36,219 nucleotides of DNA from a virus. Lineage: Duplodnaviria > Heunggongvirae > Uroviricota > Caudoviricetes. The notes beneath the pieces were generated by a model that searched no databases, was not told the DNA's origin, and saw nothing but the letters and a program-made list of their open reading frames with translations. The DNA lies in the IMG/VR virus record IMGVR_UViG_2571042636_000009; one strand, written 5' to 3'. Both the position numbers and the translations under genes were made by a program. Positions 6,706-15,806 of the stretch are shown here, piece by piece; position 1 is the first letter of the stretch, and every line of letters begins with the position of its first letter.

Positions 6706-6948
6706 ATGAAAAAATCAGAAGTATTAGGCTATTTTGGCGGAGTTGTTAAAACAGCCGCAGCTCTAGGAACGTCAAAAACCACAGTCAGCATGTGGGGGGA
6801 AGAGGTTCCGTGGAAATGGGCGTTGCTAATTCAGGCAGTCACTGCCGGGGCGCTCAAATATGAGTTACACATACCGACGGTTGTCATTCCCGGTTCTGAT
6901 CATAATCCGCCTTCTAACCAAGGGGGGATTCATGAAAATCAAGCATGA
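6706..6948 (+). CDS. Cro-like / YdaS-family small DNA-binding protein
   Basis: 80-aa ORF divergent from the repressor, with GGAG 7 nt upstream of the ATG and an HTH-like segment (KTAAALGTSKTTVSMW). Confidence 0.7.
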   Translation: MKKSEVLGYFGGVVKTAAALGTSKTTVSMWGEEVPWKWALLIQAVTAGALKYELHIPTVVIPGSDHNPPSNQGGIHENQA

Positions 6949-7357
6949 ACACATCCGCATGGCGATGAATGCCTGGGCGCGTCCTGATGGCGAAAAAGTT
7001 CCGGCAGCTGGAATAACCCAGGCTTATTTTGAGTTGGGTATGACGTTTCCTGAACTGTACGACGACAGCCATCCGGAAGCCCTGGCTCGCAATACCCAGA
7101 AAATTTTCCGCTGGATAGAGAAAGACACCCCTGATGCAGTTGAAAAAATTCAGGCGTTGTTACCAGCGATCGAAAAGGCAATGCCACCTTTGCTGGTGGC
7201 CAGAATGCGCAGCCACAGTTCAGCTTATTTTCGGGAGCTGGTGGAGACGCGGGAGCGACTGGTGAGAGACGCTGATGATTTTGTCGCAGTGGCAATCGCC
7301 GGTTTCAATCAGATGAACCGTGGTGGCCCGGCAGGAAATGCTGTGGCAGTACATTGA
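6932..7357 (+). CDS. YdaT-like (CII-position) regulatory protein
   Basis: 141-aa ORF starting MKIKHEHI, with a strong RBS (AAGGGGGG); recalled similarity to Rac YdaT; sits in the position of lambda cII. Confidence 0.6.
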   Translation: MKIKHEHIRMAMNAWARPDGEKVPAAGITQAYFELGMTFPELYDDSHPEALARNTQKIFRWIEKDTPDAVEKIQALLPAIEKAMPPLLVARMRSHSSAYFRELVETRERLVRDADDFVAVAIAGFNQMNRGGPAGNAVAVH

Positions 7358-7428
7358 CTGACAATAGCCATATCGAATCGCTTCCGGCAACTCGTGAGTA
7401 AAAAGATTCGGTATCAGAAGAGGTGAGT

Positions 7429-8499
7429 ATGGCTAACGCCTGGCTCAGATTATGGCATGACATGCCAAATGACCCTAAGTGGCGAACAATTGCCAGGGTG
7501 TCAGGGCAGCCAATTGCAACAGTGATGGCAGTGTATATCCACCTCCTGGTGAGCGCGTCACGAAATGTCACGCGAGGTCACATTGATGTCACGACAGAAG
7601 ATTTGGCAAGTGCGCTCGACGTGACAGAAGAGGTAATTGATTCAATTTTGCAGACGATGCAGGGGCGGGTACTTGATGGTGATTTAATCACTGGATGGGA
7701 AAAACGCCAGGTGCTTAAAGAGGACAACGGCAATATTTCGCAAACCGCAAAATCTCCTGCAGAGCGCAAGAGGGCGCAGCGAGAGAGGGAAAGAAAGCGG
7801 GAACAAAATGGCGATTGTCACGGCGCGTCACGAAATGTCACGCACATGTCACGACGAGTCACGACAGATAAAGATACAGATAAAGATACAGATCAAGAAG
7901 ATCAAAACACTATGGTCCATGGCGTAAAAAACGCCACGAACCAGGCAGGGGATGTTCAGACCGTCAATCTTGGTCAGCCAGCAGGCACGACACCGGAAGC
8001 CGATTCAGCGTATGCGCTGAAAGCCGATTCGGGCGCTGTGCAGCAGGTGATGACCGCAAGGCCGGAGCAATCACACCAACTGCAGCAGCCCGAAGCCGAT
8101 TCCGCCATTCAGCGGGAAGCCGATCGGGTAGTCCCGGAAAACACCGGGCAGTCTGTGGGACGAGTGGATTATCCGGATGTGTTCGAACAGGTCTGGCGGG
8201 AGTACCCGTTGCGTGCTGGGGCAAACCCGAAGAAATCCGCTTTCAGTGCCTGGAAGGCCAGATTACGCGAGGGGGTGCCACCAGAGGCCATGCTGGATGG
8301 CGTGAGGCGTTACGCAAGATACTTGGCGGCTACCGGGAAAACGGGAACGGAATTTGTTCAGCGAGCGACGACGTTTTTTGGACCGGACCGGAATTTTGAG
8401 AACCCCTGGTTGCTCCCGGTAAGCGGCACGAACAACCAGCGTTGTGTGAATCATATTTCTGAACCGGATAACGAAATTCCGCCGGGCTTCAGGGGGTAA
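7429..8499 (+). CDS. Phage replication initiator / replisome organiser (O-like)
   Basis: 356-aa ORF after the cro/cII-like genes; N-terminal domain, charged low-complexity linker (ERKRAQRERERKRE, TDKDTDKDTD) and C-terminal domain. Contains iteron-like GTCACG repeats with about 10.5-bp phasing in the linker region, as in lambdoid ori inside O. Confidence 0.7.
   Translation: MANAWLRLWHDMPNDPKWRTIARVSGQPIATVMAVYIHLLVSASRNVTRGHIDVTTEDLASALDVTEEVIDSILQTMQGRVLDGDLITGWEKRQVLKEDNGNISQTAKSPAERKRAQRERERKREQNGDCHGASRNVTHMSRRVTTDKDTDKDTDQEDQNTMVHGVKNATNQAGDVQTVNLGQPAGTTPEADSAYALKADSGAVQQVMTARPEQSHQLQQPEADSAIQREADRVVPENTGQSVGRVDYPDVFEQVWREYPLRAGANPKKSAFSAWKARLREGVPPEAMLDGVRRYARYLAATGKTGTEFVQRATTFFGPDRNFENPWLLPVSGTNNQRCVNHISEPDNEIPPGFRG
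7553..7573. repeat. 21-bp direct repeat GCGCGTCACGAAATGTCACGC, copy 1 (iteron-like)
   Basis: Exact 21-bp match to 7824-7844; embedded in a run of GTCACG motifs at 7556, 7567, 7577 and 7588. Confidence 0.7.
7816..7900. repeat. Candidate replication origin: five GTCACG iterons with 10-11 bp spacing followed by AGATAAAGATAC tandem repeats
   Basis: GTCACG at 7817, 7827, 7838, 7849 and 7859, then a tandem 12-mer AGATAAAGATAC x2.5 (A-rich); inside the interdomain linker of the initiator gene. Confidence 0.55.
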
Positions 8500-8539
8500 G
8501 TGTTAATTTCTGGTCATGAGGTAATTTTCAGGAGGGCTT

Positions 8540-8962
8540 GTGGCAAAAGTTTTTACACAAGAAGAGCGGGAAAAAATTAAAGGACAGGTTGTTGAACTCG
8601 TACGCCAGAGTGGGCGTGAGACGTTACGGCAACTGGAAGTCAAGACAGGTGCGACAAGATATCTGATGAGCGTTCTCGCAAGAGAGCTGGTTGCCAGCGG
8701 CGATGTATGCAACTCTGGTTACGGGTTATTCCCGTCTGAACAGGCGCGTAAGGACTGGCAAAATGCCCGTAAAAAGCTCTCAAGGGCAAAGCTGAAGAAA
8801 CCATCTGCGGTTGATCCGGACCTTATCTGGTCATTACCTGACGGAGAAATACGTCGCTACGACAGGCGTCAGAACATAATCTGTCGCGAGTGCCGGAAGA
8901 GTGAAGTTATGCAGCGCATATTGTCGTTTTATCAGGGTGATGTTCGGTATTTATTGAAGTGA
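8540..8962 (+). CDS. Hypothetical protein (140 aa) in the helicase-loader position
   Basis: Clean ORF with backbone-like GC content directly after the initiator gene; no family recognised (basic, CRECRK motif). Confidence 0.5.
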   Translation: MAKVFTQEEREKIKGQVVELVRQSGRETLRQLEVKTGATRYLMSVLARELVASGDVCNSGYGLFPSEQARKDWQNARKKLSRAKLKKPSAVDPDLIWSLPDGEIRRYDRRQNIICRECRKSEVMQRILSFYQGDVRYLLK

Positions 8963-9093
8963 CGAGATTAAAGTGCATTAGTTCAGATGCAAATTGACAT
9001 TTTGTGGCACAGGGTAGAGCTAGCGTGGTTGTCCGCTTTGTGCCAATAGCGGACATTGCTGGCTCATGGTATGTTAGTTTAAGGAGGCAGGTT

Positions 9094-10116
9094 ATGCCCT
9101 GTATTTCGCTGTGGTATAATAGTTGCGCAATTGATACAAGGGAGCGTTACATCGTGAAAATTGTTTTCGAGGTTAATGGAAAGAAAGTTCCACTAAAATC
9201 TTTAAAATACATAAGCAAAAAAGATCAACTCGAAGTAATGAAAAACTGGTTCTTTGAAAACTTTGAAGATCCGGCAAATGCTTGTCCGTATGAAAGTAGA
9301 GAAGGTGGCTATGCTTACATATATGGCGGGCCGTATGATGCGAGCGAAGAACTACAATCCATCTTCGGTCAATATGTTAAATCTGAGTATATTGAGGAAT
9401 TAGTAGATGAATTACAAACACAATGTTTTGACTGGTCTGGAAACTCAAATAATATAGATGATTGGTACGATGATGATATCTACGACGCTGTAACGTCTTC
9501 CGGTAATCCGTATTTAAAATTCATTGATAATATCGATAAAATAAAAAAACTTGCAAAAGATAAAACTGAACAACAGCAAAAAAACCACTTGCTTAGTTTG
9601 CTCTACACGAATGTTATTACAGCTTTGGAAACGCTTTATGTTGAGCTATTCATTAATTCTATAGAGAAAGATGATGTCTACATAGCCAATTGTATAGAAA
9701 AAGGTAAGACTGAATTTAAAGTAAGCAAAGATATTGCTGCGTTGCCTTTCAAGGGTGAACCCATCGAGAAAATTAGGGGAGAGCTAATCAGGTCAATCAA
9801 GGAACACTTGATCAGTGCAAGCTGGCATAGCACTAAAAAGGTAATCGACCGCTATGAAGCTACATTCGATATAAAAGTACAAAAAGACTGTCCGATAGAA
9901 GCTATTGAATTGGCAACCCTCAATCGAAATCACTTAGTGCATCGTGGTGGAAAGGATAAAGAAGGGAACCTCGTAGTGATTACAGACCAGGATCTTGAAA
10001 CGCTGATTGAAAATGCATCGAACCTGGCAATTATGCTCTACAACAGTTTAAATGTAGCAACGAATAAAACCACCATTTTGCAACCAGATGACAAACCGTT
10101 CATTCATGAATTTTAA
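9094..10116 (+). CDS. Candidate defense/toxin-module protein A with a C-terminal HEPN-like Rx4H motif (predicted RNase-type domain)
   Basis: 340-aa ORF (AAGGAGG 6 nt before the ATG at 9094; alternative GTG start at 9154 giving 320 aa). Strongly AT-rich compared with the flanks. Motif RNHLVH near the C-terminus matches the HEPN Rx4-6H signature. No named family recognised. Confidence 0.6.
   Translation: MPCISLWYNSCAIDTRERYIVKIVFEVNGKKVPLKSLKYISKKDQLEVMKNWFFENFEDPANACPYESREGGYAYIYGGPYDASEELQSIFGQYVKSEYIEELVDELQTQCFDWSGNSNNIDDWYDDDIYDAVTSSGNPYLKFIDNIDKIKKLAKDKTEQQQKNHLLSLLYTNVITALETLYVELFINSIEKDDVYIANCIEKGKTEFKVSKDIAALPFKGEPIEKIRGELIRSIKEHLISASWHSTKKVIDRYEATFDIKVQKDCPIEAIELATLNRNHLVHRGGKDKEGNLVVITDQDLETLIENASNLAIMLYNSLNVATNKTTILQPDDKPFIHEF
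9112..9120 (+). promoter_or_regulatory. Candidate extended -10 promoter element (TGgTATAAT) at the 5-prime edge of the AT-rich insert
   Basis: TGGTATAAT is a perfect extended -10; its position would fit the GTG start at 9154. It conflicts with the ATG start at 9094, so either the element or the longer start is wrong. Confidence 0.35.
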
Positions 10117-10131
10117 TAGCGCAGGTCATAC

Positions 10132-11133
10132 ATGGATATTCGCACACGAAAGACAAAATTTTTAGAGTCGTTAGATTCAACTGAAGTGATACGCAAAGCA
10201 GTAAGTCTCGCTATAGATTGCATTATTGATAATCATAATAGTAATGAAGATACCCCCTTAGTTATTACCAGCTATGATGATCTCTGTAGAATCCAGGTGC
10301 TAAATTATGTACAGGAGTTTTGCGAAGCTGCATTCCCTGATATGGATGAATATTACTTTAGTCCTAACATACTTCGCATCAACGGCAAGACTAGTGAAGA
10401 AGCTTGTATTAACTTAATTAAACTCTTAAGAAGTACAAAAGGCATGCTATTCTGGTCCGATGCCCCATCGTGGTTCGCTAGTCTCCCCGACGGATTATTC
10501 CATGTTGTTAACATTGATCAAAAAATCGTTACTCGCGGCCTTAATAAGAAAAACTCTAAGCCGACAATAATCAATAAAGATTACAGTGTAGATACACTAC
10601 TATCAGAGCTATTTTTGAATGGCGCACACATGGAGCAACCCAACGTACACAACGTTTCTGAGGGAAACATGAAGTTCTATGATGAATGCCATGCTGGATT
10701 AATCAGACCAATACCCGCTCCAATAGGCGCGTCATACGATGAAGAGATCACAATTAATTCTCCAGATTGGCAAAAGCTCGCGTGTGTAGCTTTACGCCGC
10801 TATCAGTCGAAGGAATGTCATGACGGAATGCAATGGGATACAACCGATCATGGTTGGACTGATGTAATCGCGTATCCATTCGTCGAAGAAATACAATCAA
10901 TGGATAATAGTGGTTATCGACAATGTTTAGTTGGGCTGGTCACAATAAACAATTCAAATGCAAATTCTCCGTACCTATCTACCGTTTGGATACATCCATT
11001 TTATCGCAGGAGAGGGTTATTAAGTAAGTTATGGCCAAAATTACAAGAGTTATATGGAAGTAACTTCGAAATTGAGCGACCTAATGAAAATATGAAAGCA
11101 TTTCTGAAAAGTGCGAAACACGCAGATTACTAA
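10132..11133 (+). CDS. Candidate defense/toxin-module protein B with a C-terminal GNAT-like acetyltransferase motif
   Basis: 333-aa ORF starting 15 nt after the stop of protein A (operon), AT-rich. The C-terminal segment LVGLVTINN...STVWIHPFYRRRGLLSKLW resembles a GNAT beta4-alpha3 motif; the N-terminal roughly 190 aa is unrecognised. Confidence 0.55.
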   Translation: MDIRTRKTKFLESLDSTEVIRKAVSLAIDCIIDNHNSNEDTPLVITSYDDLCRIQVLNYVQEFCEAAFPDMDEYYFSPNILRINGKTSEEACINLIKLLRSTKGMLFWSDAPSWFASLPDGLFHVVNIDQKIVTRGLNKKNSKPTIINKDYSVDTLLSELFLNGAHMEQPNVHNVSEGNMKFYDECHAGLIRPIPAPIGASYDEEITINSPDWQKLACVALRRYQSKECHDGMQWDTTDHGWTDVIAYPFVEEIQSMDNSGYRQCLVGLVTINNSNANSPYLSTVWIHPFYRRRGLLSKLWPKLQELYGSNFEIERPNENMKAFLKSAKHADY

Positions 11134-11244
11134 TTTATGAATCAGTCTGTGGAGTTAGGGTTGGTGTCAACAAGTAGGGTAAGAGCCTCAACGTGATGCT
11201 ATGCCGACCTGCTCCCTGAGAATTCACACAGAAGGCTGCTAGCA

Positions 11245-11535
11245 ATGTCTACAGATCGCTCAAAGCGGACTAGAAGGTTAGCTTGCGTCGGACTTGGCGT
11301 ATTTAAAGAAGTGCTGGTGGTGACTGGTTGTTGTGTTCCATTTCTACAGAACAAAATCACAGAAACTATACCCAATAGTTATATTGAATCAATGATGAGA
11401 CAGCCTCATATTTATCAGGACTGGTGTACGTCCAATACAGGAGGTTGTCGTGCTGGTTCTCAAATGTGCGCTAGCTATTGCGGCTGTAATGGCAATTTAT
11501 TGTCTTGCTGTTGTTCTTACGGATCGCCTTTCTGA
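11245..11535 (+). CDS. Hypothetical cysteine-rich small protein (96 aa)
   Basis: ORF with an AGAAGG RBS-like element about 8 nt upstream; the C-terminal 35 aa hold 10 Cys (GGCRAGSQMCASYCGCNGNLLSCCCSYGS). It could be spurious. Confidence 0.3.
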   Translation: MSTDRSKRTRRLACVGLGVFKEVLVVTGCCVPFLQNKITETIPNSYIESMMRQPHIYQDWCTSNTGGCRAGSQMCASYCGCNGNLLSCCCSYGSPF

Positions 11536-11750
11536 TTGATTTTATATTGGCGAGGTGACGTGAGTTAAGTAGAATTGCTGCGGGTGCTTGAGGCTATCTG
11601 CCTCAGGCATGAACACCAAAGGCAGATAGAGAAAAGCCCCAGTTAACATTACGCGTCCTGCAAGACGCTTAACATTAATCTGAGGCCAATTTCATGCTAG
11701 ACACATGTAGGTTAGCCTCTTACGTGCCGAAAGGCAAGGAGAAGCAGGCT

Positions 11751-11906
11751 ATGAAGCAGCAAAAGGCGATGTTAATCGCCCTGATCGTCATCTGTTTAAC
11801 CGTCATAGTGACGGCACTGGTAACGAGGAAAGACCTCTGCGAGGTACGAATCCGAACCGGCCAGACGGAGGTCGCTGTCTTCACAGCTTACGAACCTGAG
11901 GAGTAA
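11751..11906 (+). CDS. hokD: Hok-family membrane toxin HokD (RelF), 51 aa
   Basis: Translation MKQQKAMLIALIVICLTVIVTALVTRKDLCEVRIRTGQTEVAVFTAYEPEE recognised as HokD/RelF; the in-frame upstream extension from 11694 is read as a mok-like leader. Confidence 0.9.
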   Translation: MKQQKAMLIALIVICLTVIVTALVTRKDLCEVRIRTGQTEVAVFTAYEPEE

Positions 11907-11975
11907 GAGACCAGGCGAGGGAGAAATCCCTCGCCACCTCTGATGTGTCAGGCATCCTCAATGCACCCGCACTTA

Positions 11976-11998
11976 ACCCGCTTCGGCGGGTTTATTTT
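11976..11998 (+). terminator. Rho-independent terminator after hokD
   Basis: Hairpin CCCGC-TTCG-GCGGG followed by a T-run (TTTATTTTAT). Confidence 0.6.
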
Positions 11999-12364
11999 AT
12001 CTGTAAATATTTTTATAAAAATAATGCCCACACACAGCATAAAACAAAAAGTATCACAGATAAAAAAGGAGCGTAATGTGCAGATTTGTTGTTTTCCATA
12101 TTTACTCACTTTAACATAATCAAAATTGATATGGTTGTTGTTTTGGTGGTTTCAAACGAGATGTTATGGTGATCTGGTAAAATTGCATAACATTAAAATT
12201 TAATTTATCTAATCGCTTTTAATAATAAGCGTTGTGTTTATCCCAACAATCTGTTGTTTGACTTTTATTCCATTAATGTAGGGGCTTTACACTGGAACCA
12301 GTTTATTTATACTTTATACGCCAGCCTGAACAACTGGCACCTGCTGCGCCAGCAGAGACAACCG

Positions 12365-12643
12365 ATGGCGCACGATACCAAATTACACAATTCTGATGAT
12401 TCTGCCGTCTTTGCCAGCAGGTGCGGACGGCGTTTTCATGTATTCAAATCGGACTGGTTCCAGCATCCACCATGCACTGAAGAGCAGGCTGAATGGATAA
12501 TTCAGTGTTACCGCAGGCGCGGATACGAGGTTAAAAAAGCCCTTAGCCTCGACTACCGTCACTGGATAATCTCAGTCAGATTGCCTTACTCCGAACGCCC
12601 ACCGCGTCCGTCCCACACATTCCAGCAACGCATCTGGAGGTAA
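12365..12643 (+). CDS. rem: Rem-like small protein (position of rem in Qin)
   Basis: 92-aa ORF from an internal ATG (MAHDTKLHNSDDSAVF...), directly upstream of and overlapping the ydfU start; identity from recalled gene order hokD-rem-ydfU. Confidence 0.5.
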   Translation: MAHDTKLHNSDDSAVFASRCGRRFHVFKSDWFQHPPCTEEQAEWIIQCYRRRGYEVKKALSLDYRHWIISVRLPYSERPPRPSHTFQQRIWR

Positions 12644-12644
12644 C

Positions 12645-13694
12645 GTGCGGGTATTACTTCGACCTGTTCTGGTACCGGAACTCGGGCTGGTGATCGTTAA
12701 GCCGGGCCGTGAATCCATGCCGGTATTCCACAATACCCGGTTACTGGTGGAGCCGGAACCGAAAAGCATGCGTAATCTGCCGTCCGGGGTCGTTCCTGCC
12801 GCTCGCCAGCCGCTGGTGGAAGACAAAACATTGCTGCCGTTTTTCAGTAACGCACGGGTGATTCGTGCTGCTGGTGGTGCTGGTGCATTGTCTGACTGGC
12901 TGTTGCGCCATATTAAATCCTGCCAGTGGCCACACGGCGATTATCATCACAGCGAAACCGTCATTCACCGTTATGGTACCGGCGCAATGGTGTTGTGCTG
13001 GCACTGCGACAACCAGCTGCGTGACCAGACATCCGAATCACTCGAGCAACTTGCTCATCAAAACCTGTCAGCATGGATGATTGACGTCATCGGTCACGCA
13101 ATAAGCGGTACGCAGGAGCGTGAATTATCTCTGGCTGAATTATCCTGGTGGGCGGTCCGCAATCAGGTGGCGGACGCGCTACCGGAAGCGGTATTACGTC
13201 GCTCGCTGGGATTACCAGCGGAAAAAAACTGCTCGGTGTACCGCGAAAGCGACATCGTACCGGGAGAGCAGACCGCCACCAGCATATTGAAACAGCGCAC
13301 AAAAAATCTTGCACCGTTGCCTCACGCCCACCAGCAACAAAACCCATCACAGGAAAAAACGGTGGTAAGCATCACCGTTGATCCTGAGTCTCCGGAATCT
13401 TTCATGAAGCTGCCTAAACGTCACCGTTGGGTTAAGGAGAAATACACACGCTGGGTTAAGACACAGCCGTGTGCTTGCTGCGGTATGCCAGCCGACGATC
13501 CGCATCATCTGATTGGTCACGGGCAGGGCGGAATGGGAACCAAAGCACATGATCTCTTTGTGTTGCCTTTGTGCAGAAAGCATCACGACGAGTTGCATAC
13601 GGATACCGTGGCATTTGAAGAGAAGTATGGCTCCCAACTGGAGCTGATTTTTCGATTTATCGATCGCGCGCTGGCAATTGGTGTGCTGGCCTAA
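12645..13694 (+). CDS. ydfU: YdfU (DUF968 family) prophage protein
   Basis: 349-aa ORF, same length as K-12 YdfU, with C-terminal Cys/His-rich motifs ([23 protein letters not shown]); lies between rem and the Q antiterminator. Confidence 0.7.
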
Positions 13695-14490: not shown

Positions 14491-14536
14491 CTGATGAATC
14501 CCCTAATGATTTTTATCAAAATCATTAAGTTAAGGT

Positions 14537-14605
14537 AGATACACATCTTGTCATATGATCAAATGGTTTCGCCAAAAATCAATAATCAGACAACAAAATG
14601 TGCGA
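14537..14605 (-). ncRNA. IS10 RNA-OUT antisense RNA (approximate coordinates)
   Basis: Placed from known IS10 organisation (RNA-OUT is antisense to the transposase translation start near the outside end); not independently verifiable here. A GATC Dam site at 14558-14561 lies in the pIN region. Confidence 0.4.
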
Positions 14606-15806
14606 ACTCGATATTTTACACGACTCTCTTTACCAATTCTGCCCCGAATTACACTTAAAACGACTCAACAGCTTAACGTTGGCTTGCCACGCCTTACTTG
14701 ACTGTAAAACTCTCACTCTTACCGAACTTGGCCGTAACCTGCCAACCAAAGCGAGAACAAAACATAACATCAAACGAATCGACCGATTGTTAGGTAATCG
14801 TCACCTCCACAAAGAGCGACTCGCTGTATACCGTTGGCATGCTAGCTTTATCTGTTCGGGCAATACGATGCCCATTGTACTTGTTGACTGGTCTGATATC
14901 CGTGAGCAAAAACGGCTTATGGTATTGCGAGCTTCAGTCGCACTACACGGTCGTTCTGTTACTCTTTATGAGAAAGCGTTCCCGCTTTCAGAGCAATGTT
15001 CAAAGAAAGCTCATGACCAATTTCTAGCCGACCTTGCGAGCATTCTACCGAGTAACACCACACCGCTCATTGTCAGTGATGCTGGCTTTAAAGTGCCATG
15101 GTATAAATCCGTTGAGAAGCTGGGTTGGTACTGGTTAAGTCGAGTAAGAGGAAAAGTACAATATGCAGACCTAGGAGCGGAAAACTGGAAACCTATCAGC
15201 AACTTACATGATATGTCATCTAGTCACTCAAAGACTTTAGGCTATAAGAGGCTGACTAAAAGCAATCCAATCTCATGCCAAATTCTATTGTATAAATCTC
15301 GCTCTAAAGGCCGAAAAAATCAGCGCTCGACACGGACTCATTGTCACCACCCGTCACCTAAAATCTACTCAGCGTCGGCAAAGGAGCCATGGATTCTAGC
15401 AACTAACTTACCTGTTGAAATTCGAACACCCAAACAACTTGTTAATATCTATTCGAAGCGAATGCAGATTGAAGAAACCTTCCGAGACTTGAAAAGTCCT
15501 GCCTACGGACTAGGCCTACGCCATAGCCGAACGAGCAGCTCAGAGCGTTTTGATATCATGCTGCTAATCGCCCTGATGCTTCAACTAACATGTTGGCTTG
15601 CGGGCGTTCATGCTCAGAAACAAGGTTGGGACAAGCACTTCCAGGCTAACACAGTCAGAAATCGAAACGTACTCTCAACAGTTCGCTTAGGCATGGAAGT
15701 TTTGCGGCATTCTGGCTACACAATAACAAGGGAAGACTCACTCGTGGCTGCAACCCTGCTTACTCAAAATCTATTCACACATGGTTACGTTTTGGGGAAA
15801 TTATGA
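14598..15806 (+). CDS. IS10 transposase
   Basis: 402-aa ORF MCELDILHDSLYQFCPELHLKRLNSL..., recognised as IS10 transposase; starts at IS position 108. Confidence 0.95.
   Translation: MCELDILHDSLYQFCPELHLKRLNSLTLACHALLDCKTLTLTELGRNLPTKARTKHNIKRIDRLLGNRHLHKERLAVYRWHASFICSGNTMPIVLVDWSDIREQKRLMVLRASVALHGRSVTLYEKAFPLSEQCSKKAHDQFLADLASILPSNTTPLIVSDAGFKVPWYKSVEKLGWYWLSRVRGKVQYADLGAENWKPISNLHDMSSSHSKTLGYKRLTKSNPISCQILLYKSRSKGRKNQRSTRTHCHHPSPKIYSASAKEPWILATNLPVEIRTPKQLVNIYSKRMQIEETFRDLKSPAYGLGLRHSRTSSSERFDIMLLIALMLQLTCWLAGVHAQKQGWDKHFQANTVRNRNVLSTVRLGMEVLRHSGYTITREDSLVAATLLTQNLFTHGYVLGKL

Follow-up and report, generated by a model that had tools for sequence, protein, structure and literature searches.

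What is the function of a two-gene insert that occupies the space between a DUF977 family gene and hokD in an Escherichia coli prophage, and do its two genes work together? We addressed this question in a stretch of 36,219 nucleotides, referred to below as the window (IMG/VR virus record IMGVR_UViG_2571042636_000009, Caudoviricetes). The window is an E. coli prophage inserted beside ompW, lambdoid and Rac/Qin-like. The insert is a sharply bounded cassette of 2,240 bp (9031-11270) with two genes on the same strand: gene A, whose product carries a HEPN motif, and gene B, whose product ends in a GNAT-like domain. Judging by guilt by association and domain logic, we consider the cassette a strong anti-phage candidate rather than a toxin-antitoxin pair. 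The explanation we favour, with about even confidence, is that it is mobile cargo in a Rac/Qin-like slot in which each gene would be an autonomous, single-protein defence factor of the abortive-infection type.

A mobile cassette bounded by inverted repeats

The cassette and its backbone neighbours are as follows.
8540..8962, + strand: DUF977 family gene, left backbone neighbour in the prophage replication region (RefSeq annotation, identical S88 locus)
9031..11270, + strand: whole cassette, comprising terminal repeats, leader, gene A and gene B (shared end points; break in GC content)
9031..9063, + strand: left terminal inverted repeat GTCCGCTTTGTGCCAATAGCGGACATTGCTGGC, with its own palindrome GTCCGC..GCGGAC (repeat pairing; conserved across cassettes)
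11238..11270, + strand: right terminal inverted repeat, reverse complement GTCCGCTTTGAGCGATCTGTAGACATTGCTAGC (repeat pairing; alignment of ends)
11582..11906, + strand: sok/mok/hokD type I toxin-antitoxin locus, right backbone neighbour (Rfam; S88 annotation; K-12 homology)

The gene order of this region is repressor/cro, YdaT, a 358-aa replication-region protein, DUF977, A, B, sok/mok/hokD, DUF968, RusA and the antiterminator. Where the two were compared (window 8500-11800), the window shares 99.5% identity with the S88 strain's prophage. A preliminary description of the window, made from its letters, had placed an insert at 9000-11140 and estimated its GC content at one third against half in the flanks. 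DNA homology in seven unrelated contexts instead sets the edges at 9031 and 11270. Windowed calculation confirmed that the compositional break is real and showed that its size had been overstated, with a GC content of 0.389 across 9031-11270 (gene A 0.361, gene B 0.390) compared to 0.516 on the left (6800-9030) and 0.484 on the right (11271-13500). The minimum in 300-nt windows is 0.32-0.33, and the GC content of the cassette falls in the lowest 9% of all 2.24-kb windows across the whole window, of which the most AT-rich part is not the cassette but approximately 17050-19500 (0.36).

Identical ends, corresponding to 9031 and 11270, were found in an E. coli prophage, a Serratia chromosome (L003), an IncF plasmid, where the unit lies beside IS26 (L104), IMG/VR contigs, a Citrobacter phage-plasmid (L103), a Providencia plasmid (L102) and a P4-like satellite (L099). 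The lateral acquisition suggested earlier is thus borne out, the same 2,240-bp unit residing in prophages, plasmids and a satellite. The terminal inverted repeats are imperfect, approximately 33 bp long, and each contains a small palindrome. The left repeat is conserved in cassettes whose contents are of nine different kinds, and it also recurs in ten or more further insertion contexts, where the cargo can be non-defence. A scan of viral contigs identified 44 with the left end, and eight further cassette versions were recovered in the same prophage slot with identical flanks. No target-site duplication was seen at the cassettes, and most of them lack a transposase. Several left flanks share a weak TGGTY motif. 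Among 5,426 complete E. coli genomes, 205 carry the entire unit, which is common in extraintestinal pathogenic (ExPEC) and avian pathogenic (APEC) lineages, including S88, UTI89, APEC O1 and IHE3034, a prevalence that could make the cassette matter for host range in phage therapy. None of the 5,426 genomes had an empty insertion site, the smallest filling being a remnant of 272 nt.

The preliminary description had also pointed to a cargo hotspot upstream of hokD, and comparison with other strains supports this. In the K-12 Qin prophage, relB-relE lies directly upstream of hokD, with relE ending 71 nt before it, and the DUF977-hokD space in E. coli holds at least eight alternative contents, among them an alpha/beta hydrolase, several DUF7167-type small genes as a set, DUF4209, a protein of 269 aa, and QueH, which may be accompanied by a methyltransferase. 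From 11737, shortly ahead of hokD, the window is again homologous to K-12. Approximately 470 nt of backbone, including sok and mok, separate the cassette from hokD, and K-12 Qin is without that hok regulatory region. The sok RNA match (RF01794, 119.9 bits, 11582-11756) is complete, and a mok-like open reading frame (ORF) overlaps hokD.

Sister cassettes of the repeat family have the following lengths and contents.
272 nt: deletion remnant
1,032 nt: Cys-rich 269-aa protein
1,228 nt: protein with an RSKAVH motif
1,442 nt (L121): divergent pair of an XRE/cupin-type regulator and a canonical 147-aa GNAT protein (PF13673, E 2.7e-13)
2,104 nt: DUF4209, PADLOC PDC-S39 (E 3e-102)
2,680 nt: AbiH (E 1e-27) plus a partner
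4,335 nt: SMODS plus SLATT plus an insertion sequence (IS)
5,411 nt: contents including PD-T7-1 (E 7e-157)

Since the slot holds known anti-phage genes in other strains, we read the cassette of the window as a candidate anti-phage module. Searches of the literature for such repeat-bounded cassettes returned no description of them, and the vehicle is the most novel part of the locus. Loci at which cassettes of the repeat family were recorded are L109, L111, L112, L116, L120, L121, L123, L126, L127, L135, L140 and L144, and the GNAT protein of L121 represents a second acetyltransferase cargo within the family.

Domain architecture of proteins A and B

The genes, their motifs and the putative promoter lie at the following positions.
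9112..9120, + strand: promoter-like extended -10 element TGGTATAAT, read from the sequence, within the conserved leader 9031-9126
9154..10116, + strand: gene A, 320 aa (340 aa from ATG 9094), with PF18870 at approximately aa 1-115 and HEPN at approximately aa 140-308
9925..9942, + strand: HEPN Rx4H motif RNHLVH, R258...H263, residues 258-263 of the 320-aa form (alignment A1)
10132..11133, + strand: gene B, 333 aa, with a degenerate P-loop-NTPase-like region without Walker A at approximately aa 1-190 and a GNAT-like region at approximately aa 205-333
10993..11034, + strand: GNAT motif-A-like segment HPFYRRRGLLSKLW, strand beta4 to helix alpha3, residues 288-301 of B

As described previously, the two ORFs are 15 nt apart, the stop codon of A ending at 10116 and B starting with ATG at 10132. 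The mechanical ORF of A spans 9004-10116. RefSeq starts the protein at GTG 9154, giving 320 aa (WP_014639476.1), and an alternative ATG at 9094, which follows the strong ribosome-binding site TAAGGAGG, gives a product of 340 aa. Conservation of the gene A family begins at 9154, and relatives without B share DNA with the window only from approximately 9131. ORF B (10132-11133) encodes 333 aa (WP_000354966.1). The leader (9031-9126) appears to hold a promoter at the extended -10 element TGGTATAAT, downstream of which lie AAGGGAG and then GTG 9154. A consensus promoter scan missed this element, whose -35 is poor. In a derivative from which gene A has been deleted (L098), the leader is retained and lies directly upstream of B. 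No convincing terminator was found after gene B, and the two genes are probably co-transcribed from the cassette's own leader, which would let a lysogen express them without relying on the repressed early operon.

Protein A is a two-domain protein, PF18870 followed by HEPN, as judged from sequence profiles and fold. The earlier reading of RNHLVH as a HEPN signature (Rx4-6H) is upheld by an alignment of 44 relatives of A with identities ranging from 87 to 26% (alignment A1), in which R258, H263 and R264 of RNHLVHR are invariant and the catalytic motif takes the forms RNHLVH, RHDIVH or RAIxxRH. Protein A also has the four-helix up-and-down fold characteristic of HEPN domains. Among the 44 relatives, 24 match the RiboL-PSP-HEPN family PF18735 (best E 7e-11) and 41 match PF18870, "HEPN/RES N-terminal domain 1", at E <= 0.01 (best E 1e-6). 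The window protein itself hits PF18870 below the Pfam threshold, with E 2e-4. The preliminary description had found no resemblance for the N-terminal two thirds of either protein. This does not hold for A, which begins with PF18870, the defining domain of aRES. The aRES protein joins PF18870 to a RES domain and, as a single gene, confers protection with growth arrest and NAD+ depletion (10.64898/2026.01.28.702374).

An exhaustive search with the N-terminal domain of A returned 1,399 cluster representatives. Among the closest 109 full-length relatives, 84 match PF18870 at E <= 0.001 (best E 8e-13), and the domain's partner is mostly HEPN, with PIN_8, GmrSD_N and KAP NTPase also represented. Such variety is typical of interchangeable toxic effectors attached to a conserved module with a regulatory or sensor role. 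Fusions of PF18870 to other C-termini were recorded at loci L058-L081 and in proteins P0189, P0219, P0227 and others, and alphaproteobacterial proteins with this N-domain have a C-terminal GIGHNNPP motif followed by a hydrophobic tail. When 50,697 phage records were searched by tblastn, A matched only two distant metagenomic phages, and B had no match.

The GNAT-like C-terminus proposed for B fared less evenly. In the predicted structure (predicted local distance difference test score, pLDDT, 90), B has two domains, the second of which adopts the GNAT alpha/beta fold, and in the alignment of the family (alignment A2) residues W286, H288, P289 and R292 are invariant. PF00583 is matched by 16 of 42 relatives (best E 6e-6), and relatives are named "GNAT family N-acetyltransferase" by some sources; the window protein scores 19.9 bits (E 9e-4) with a cut-off of 20.7. 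The acetyl-CoA loop, Q/RxxGxG/A, is only partly canonical. R292 is invariant, G295 is found in most relatives and replaced in some (RRKRKL, RRKQKL), and the last G/A position of the loop is L or M. Together with a fold that ends after helix alpha4, this partial loop means that B may be no active transferase. The N-domain of B was not found joined to other C-terminal domains, the architecture being invariant across the family.

No consistent match in PADLOC-DB v2.0.0 was obtained for A, B, the 44 relatives of A or the 42 relatives of B, in keeping with the earlier statement that the pair belongs to no recognised named system. PHROGs lists both families as of unknown function, RefSeq labels both proteins hypothetical, and an NCBIfam search of the proteins found no match. 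The best hits of both families in profile searches of PDB sequences, eL20 and a radical SAM protein (E approximately 0.02), were dismissed as not meaningful. Literature searches on the protein accessions, on HEPN plus GNAT defence, on the slot and on the repeat strings found nothing. Protein A is a HEPN variant of the known PF18870 architecture, and B represents an uncharacterised family.

The conservation of these proteins bears on whether the two genes have an immune role at all. They might instead be 'morons' that alter host physiology, through RNA processing or through acetylation of host proteins or tRNA, or decaying passengers of a promiscuous vehicle. Such a possibility is encouraged by the LysR/AraC regulators, hydrolases and transporters that the repeat family also carries, and by the fact that a defence role of A and B would rest on sequence and context. 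At the prophage slot, however, most protein-coding sister cassettes carry a recognised or candidate defence gene, and the others have no PADLOC match. In addition, both ORFs are intact, their catalytic-type residues are invariant across 27-40% identity, and the domains of A place it in a conflict-system family of which one member, aRES, has been validated. We therefore regard a non-immune function as improbable.

Linkage, uncoupling and candidate function

We next consider whether A and B are partners. The preliminary description had proposed a two-component module, and the pair is indeed found at 19 loci with a spacer that is 15 nt throughout. Identities to the window proteins co-diverge (A/B 98/96, 98/95, 96/92, 86/79 and 78/74%), and the pair is kept in three kinds of vehicle. 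Besides the repeat-bounded cassette these are a mobilisable element of Aeromonas and a third context, neither of which has the repeats. On the relaxase-bearing Aeromonas element (L089-L091), the pair lies beside SIR2 and opposite-strand cREC_REC genes, which may be another defence module.

Both families are nevertheless found far more often alone. B is missing from 50 of 60 A-family loci where 1.2 kb or more of sequence follows A. Among these are relatives that are 71-77% identical to A and have intact ORFs of 311-324 aa; they lie between housekeeping genes in Aeromonas, beside ParE in Dickeya, in Yersinia, and in E. coli satellites and a phage. Genes of the A family stand alone in islands, in satellites and adjoining toxin-antitoxin genes. 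The ORFs neighbouring A relatives form no cluster that would represent a conserved alternative partner. Similarly, relatives of B at 39-62% identity stand alone without a conserved neighbour in five distant contexts: in a defence island whose other genes include BrxC/D-like, Mrr and HEPN_Toprim_N ones, beside Abi_2, in an integrative and conjugative element, in a Mu-like prophage and in a primase-bearing element. B without A was observed at L082, L083, L105, the P0164 locus, L098 and L099.

Within the close lineage, gene A has been deleted twice independently, at L098 (6817-8075) and L099 (6380-7578), which lack the equivalents of window 9127-10054 and 9088-10074, respectively. Both deletions spare the leader and the final 42-62 nt of A, and B is intact. 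In the Providencia plasmid L102, A is cut to a 102-aa remnant and B is again intact. Taken together, the solo genes and the uncoupling events exclude an obligate pair and make a classical toxin-antitoxin module unlikely. A further rearrangement at L100 (6644-7606) encodes a 320-aa chimera of the first approximately 120 residues of a DnaC-like replication protein, through the Walker A loop, and B from residue 133, evidently left by a deletion that took out the remainder of the replication gene, gene A and the first part of B; the chimeric protein, P0148, is on record on nine contigs.

A looser two-component system, with A as HEPN RNase effector and B restraining, activating or complementing it, is the main rival to autonomous function, since losses that hit A alone leave room for B to restrain A in the close lineage. 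The nucleotidyltransferase MntA AMPylates and silences HepT, and by analogy B could acetylate A. The operon arrangement with its constant spacer at 19 loci, the co-divergence down to 78/74%, the retention of the pair in three vehicles (two without terminal repeats) and the loss of A (two deletions and one truncation) with B intact, the reverse not being observed, would all fit this arrangement. Set against it are the 50 A-family loci without B, intact close relatives among them, the B relatives that stand alone and the solo action of aRES, which shares the N-domain of A; moreover, the uncoupling events are a small sample. On balance we consider a two-component system unlikely.

An addiction-type toxin-antitoxin pair stabilising the prophage or plasmid, with one protein as toxin and the other as antitoxin, is a further rival. 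HEPN and GNAT domains both occur as toxins of toxin-antitoxin systems, the slot is that of relBE in K-12 and adjoins hok/sok, and the losses affect A only. Yet the two families are mostly found without each other, both proteins are large and have two domains, and the cassette contains no small DNA-binding antitoxin and no MNT or ribbon-helix-helix (RHH)/DUF1778 partner. The region upstream of A was searched for repeats or an RNA antitoxin as in type III or AbiF systems; we found no tandem repeats, and the only Rfam match was sok. We give a classical toxin-antitoxin role very little credence.

Returning to the explanation that we favour, in which A and B act independently, A would be the HEPN counterpart of aRES. 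Its PF18870 domain would keep A off and respond to an infection cue, its HEPN domain would cut RNA (tRNA or mRNA) at a composite R258/H263 site of a dimer, and this cutting would stop translation and phage growth. B would be a two-domain acetyltransferase-like protein, for which the likeliest mode may be that infection triggers it to acetylate either a component of translation or a protein of the phage. If so, B would add an acetyltransferase-type effector, a chemistry absent from the PADLOC-DB v2 models searched.

Several observations count against this explanation. The constant 15-nt spacer and the co-divergence to 78% (A) and 74% (B) in three vehicles, as well as the three close-lineage losses of A alone, would also be expected if A depended functionally on B. 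Protein A of the window lies below the Pfam cut-off for PF18870 (22.1 bits, cut-off 27.4) and has no HEPN Pfam match of its own at E <= 1, and the GNAT domain of B combines its partly canonical acetyl-CoA loop with a fold that stops after helix alpha4. Finally, the vehicle is not defence-specific, some cassettes of the repeat family carrying LysR, a hydrolase or transporters, and the case for defence is made by guilt by association and domain logic.

Combining vehicle and cargo leads to a broader proposal, which we advance tentatively and think somewhat more likely to fail than to hold. The cassettes would form an undescribed, non-autonomous family of Enterobacterales that swaps defence genes, with terminal inverted repeats of 27-33 bp (left GTCCGCTTTGTGCCAAnAGCGGACATT, right a related inverted copy), insertion without target-site duplication and no transposase of its own. 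This family would shuttle PD-T7-1, AbiH, DUF4209/PDC-S39, SMODS+SLATT and the HEPN/GNAT pair among the prophage slot, plasmids, satellites and chromosomes. Among relatives of aRES, A would then be the first to be armed with HEPN, and B would be the founding member of a new family of immune effectors based on acetyltransferases. How such hotspots are refilled is an open question in the field, and the repeat-bounded cassettes offer a concrete possible way, providing a potential route for defence-gene exchange at a prophage hotspot and for export to plasmids.

Surroundings of the cassette and comparison with known systems

Beyond the cassette, a Cys-rich ORF of 96 aa (11245-11535) starts within the right terminal repeat. 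Downstream of the antiterminator region, the segment 14500-18400 contains an IS10-like element with a 402-aa DDE transposase (14598-15806) and IS10-type ends near 14504. This element was rejected as the autonomous partner of the cassette, its ends being unrelated. It is followed, at a GC content of approximately 0.36, by genes for a 2-thiouracil desulfurase/DUF1722 protein (16300-17259) and an AraC-family regulator (17657-18379). ARAGORN found no tRNA genes in the window, although three are present at the equivalent position of the S88 prophage.

In its position upstream of hokD the cassette resembles K-12 relBE and the other contents of the slot, whose genes are unrelated to A and B. With regard to B, acetylation of aminoacyl-tRNA is a plausible means by which a GNAT protein could stop translation, and the toxins TacT, AtaT, ItaT and KacT share with B the GNAT fold and a mobile-element context. 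These toxins are single-domain proteins of approximately 170 aa with an adjacent RHH/DUF1778 antitoxin, whereas B has 333 aa, an additional N-terminal alpha/beta domain, a truncated GNAT C-terminus and no small DNA-binding gene in the cassette. Assignment of B to the TacT/AtaT type was rejected on its two domains and the absence of an RHH/DUF1778 neighbour.

Among HEPN proteins, A differs from HepT/MntA, PD-T7-3/DARNA, PD-T4-2, PD-T4-5, ApeA, AbiV and Csm6 in size and domain order, and has no MNT nucleotidyltransferase partner, the GNAT-like B being its sole neighbour in the cassette. HepT and ApeA were rejected as identities for A, there being no PADLOC match for A or its relatives. HepS, a solo HEPN anticodon nuclease of the Gifsy-1 prophage, brings about abortive infection via tRNA cleavage (PMC13043305). 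It is a prophage HEPN protein without a partner gene and is encoded, like A, in a lambdoid accessory slot between replication genes and late regulators. A would act in the manner of aRES and HepS, yet it was not assigned to HepS or to DARNA/PD-T7-3, in view of its size, its domain order and the lack of a profile match.

The closest comparison is with aRES, which is located in defence islands and acts without a partner (Sorek laboratory preprint, 10.64898/2026.01.28.702374). A has the same PF18870 N-domain, a C-terminal effector and a stand-alone distribution; it has no match to the RES domain and so shares the architecture of aRES without being a member. Its effector has the HEPN RNase fold rather than that of a RES NAD+ phosphorylase, and with HEPN in place of RES, the target of A would be RNA, not NAD+. 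Should A protect against phage, PF18870 would be a portable switch able to arm either an NADase, as in aRES, or an RNase, and the two proteins would provide a clean pair with which to address the question of sensing.

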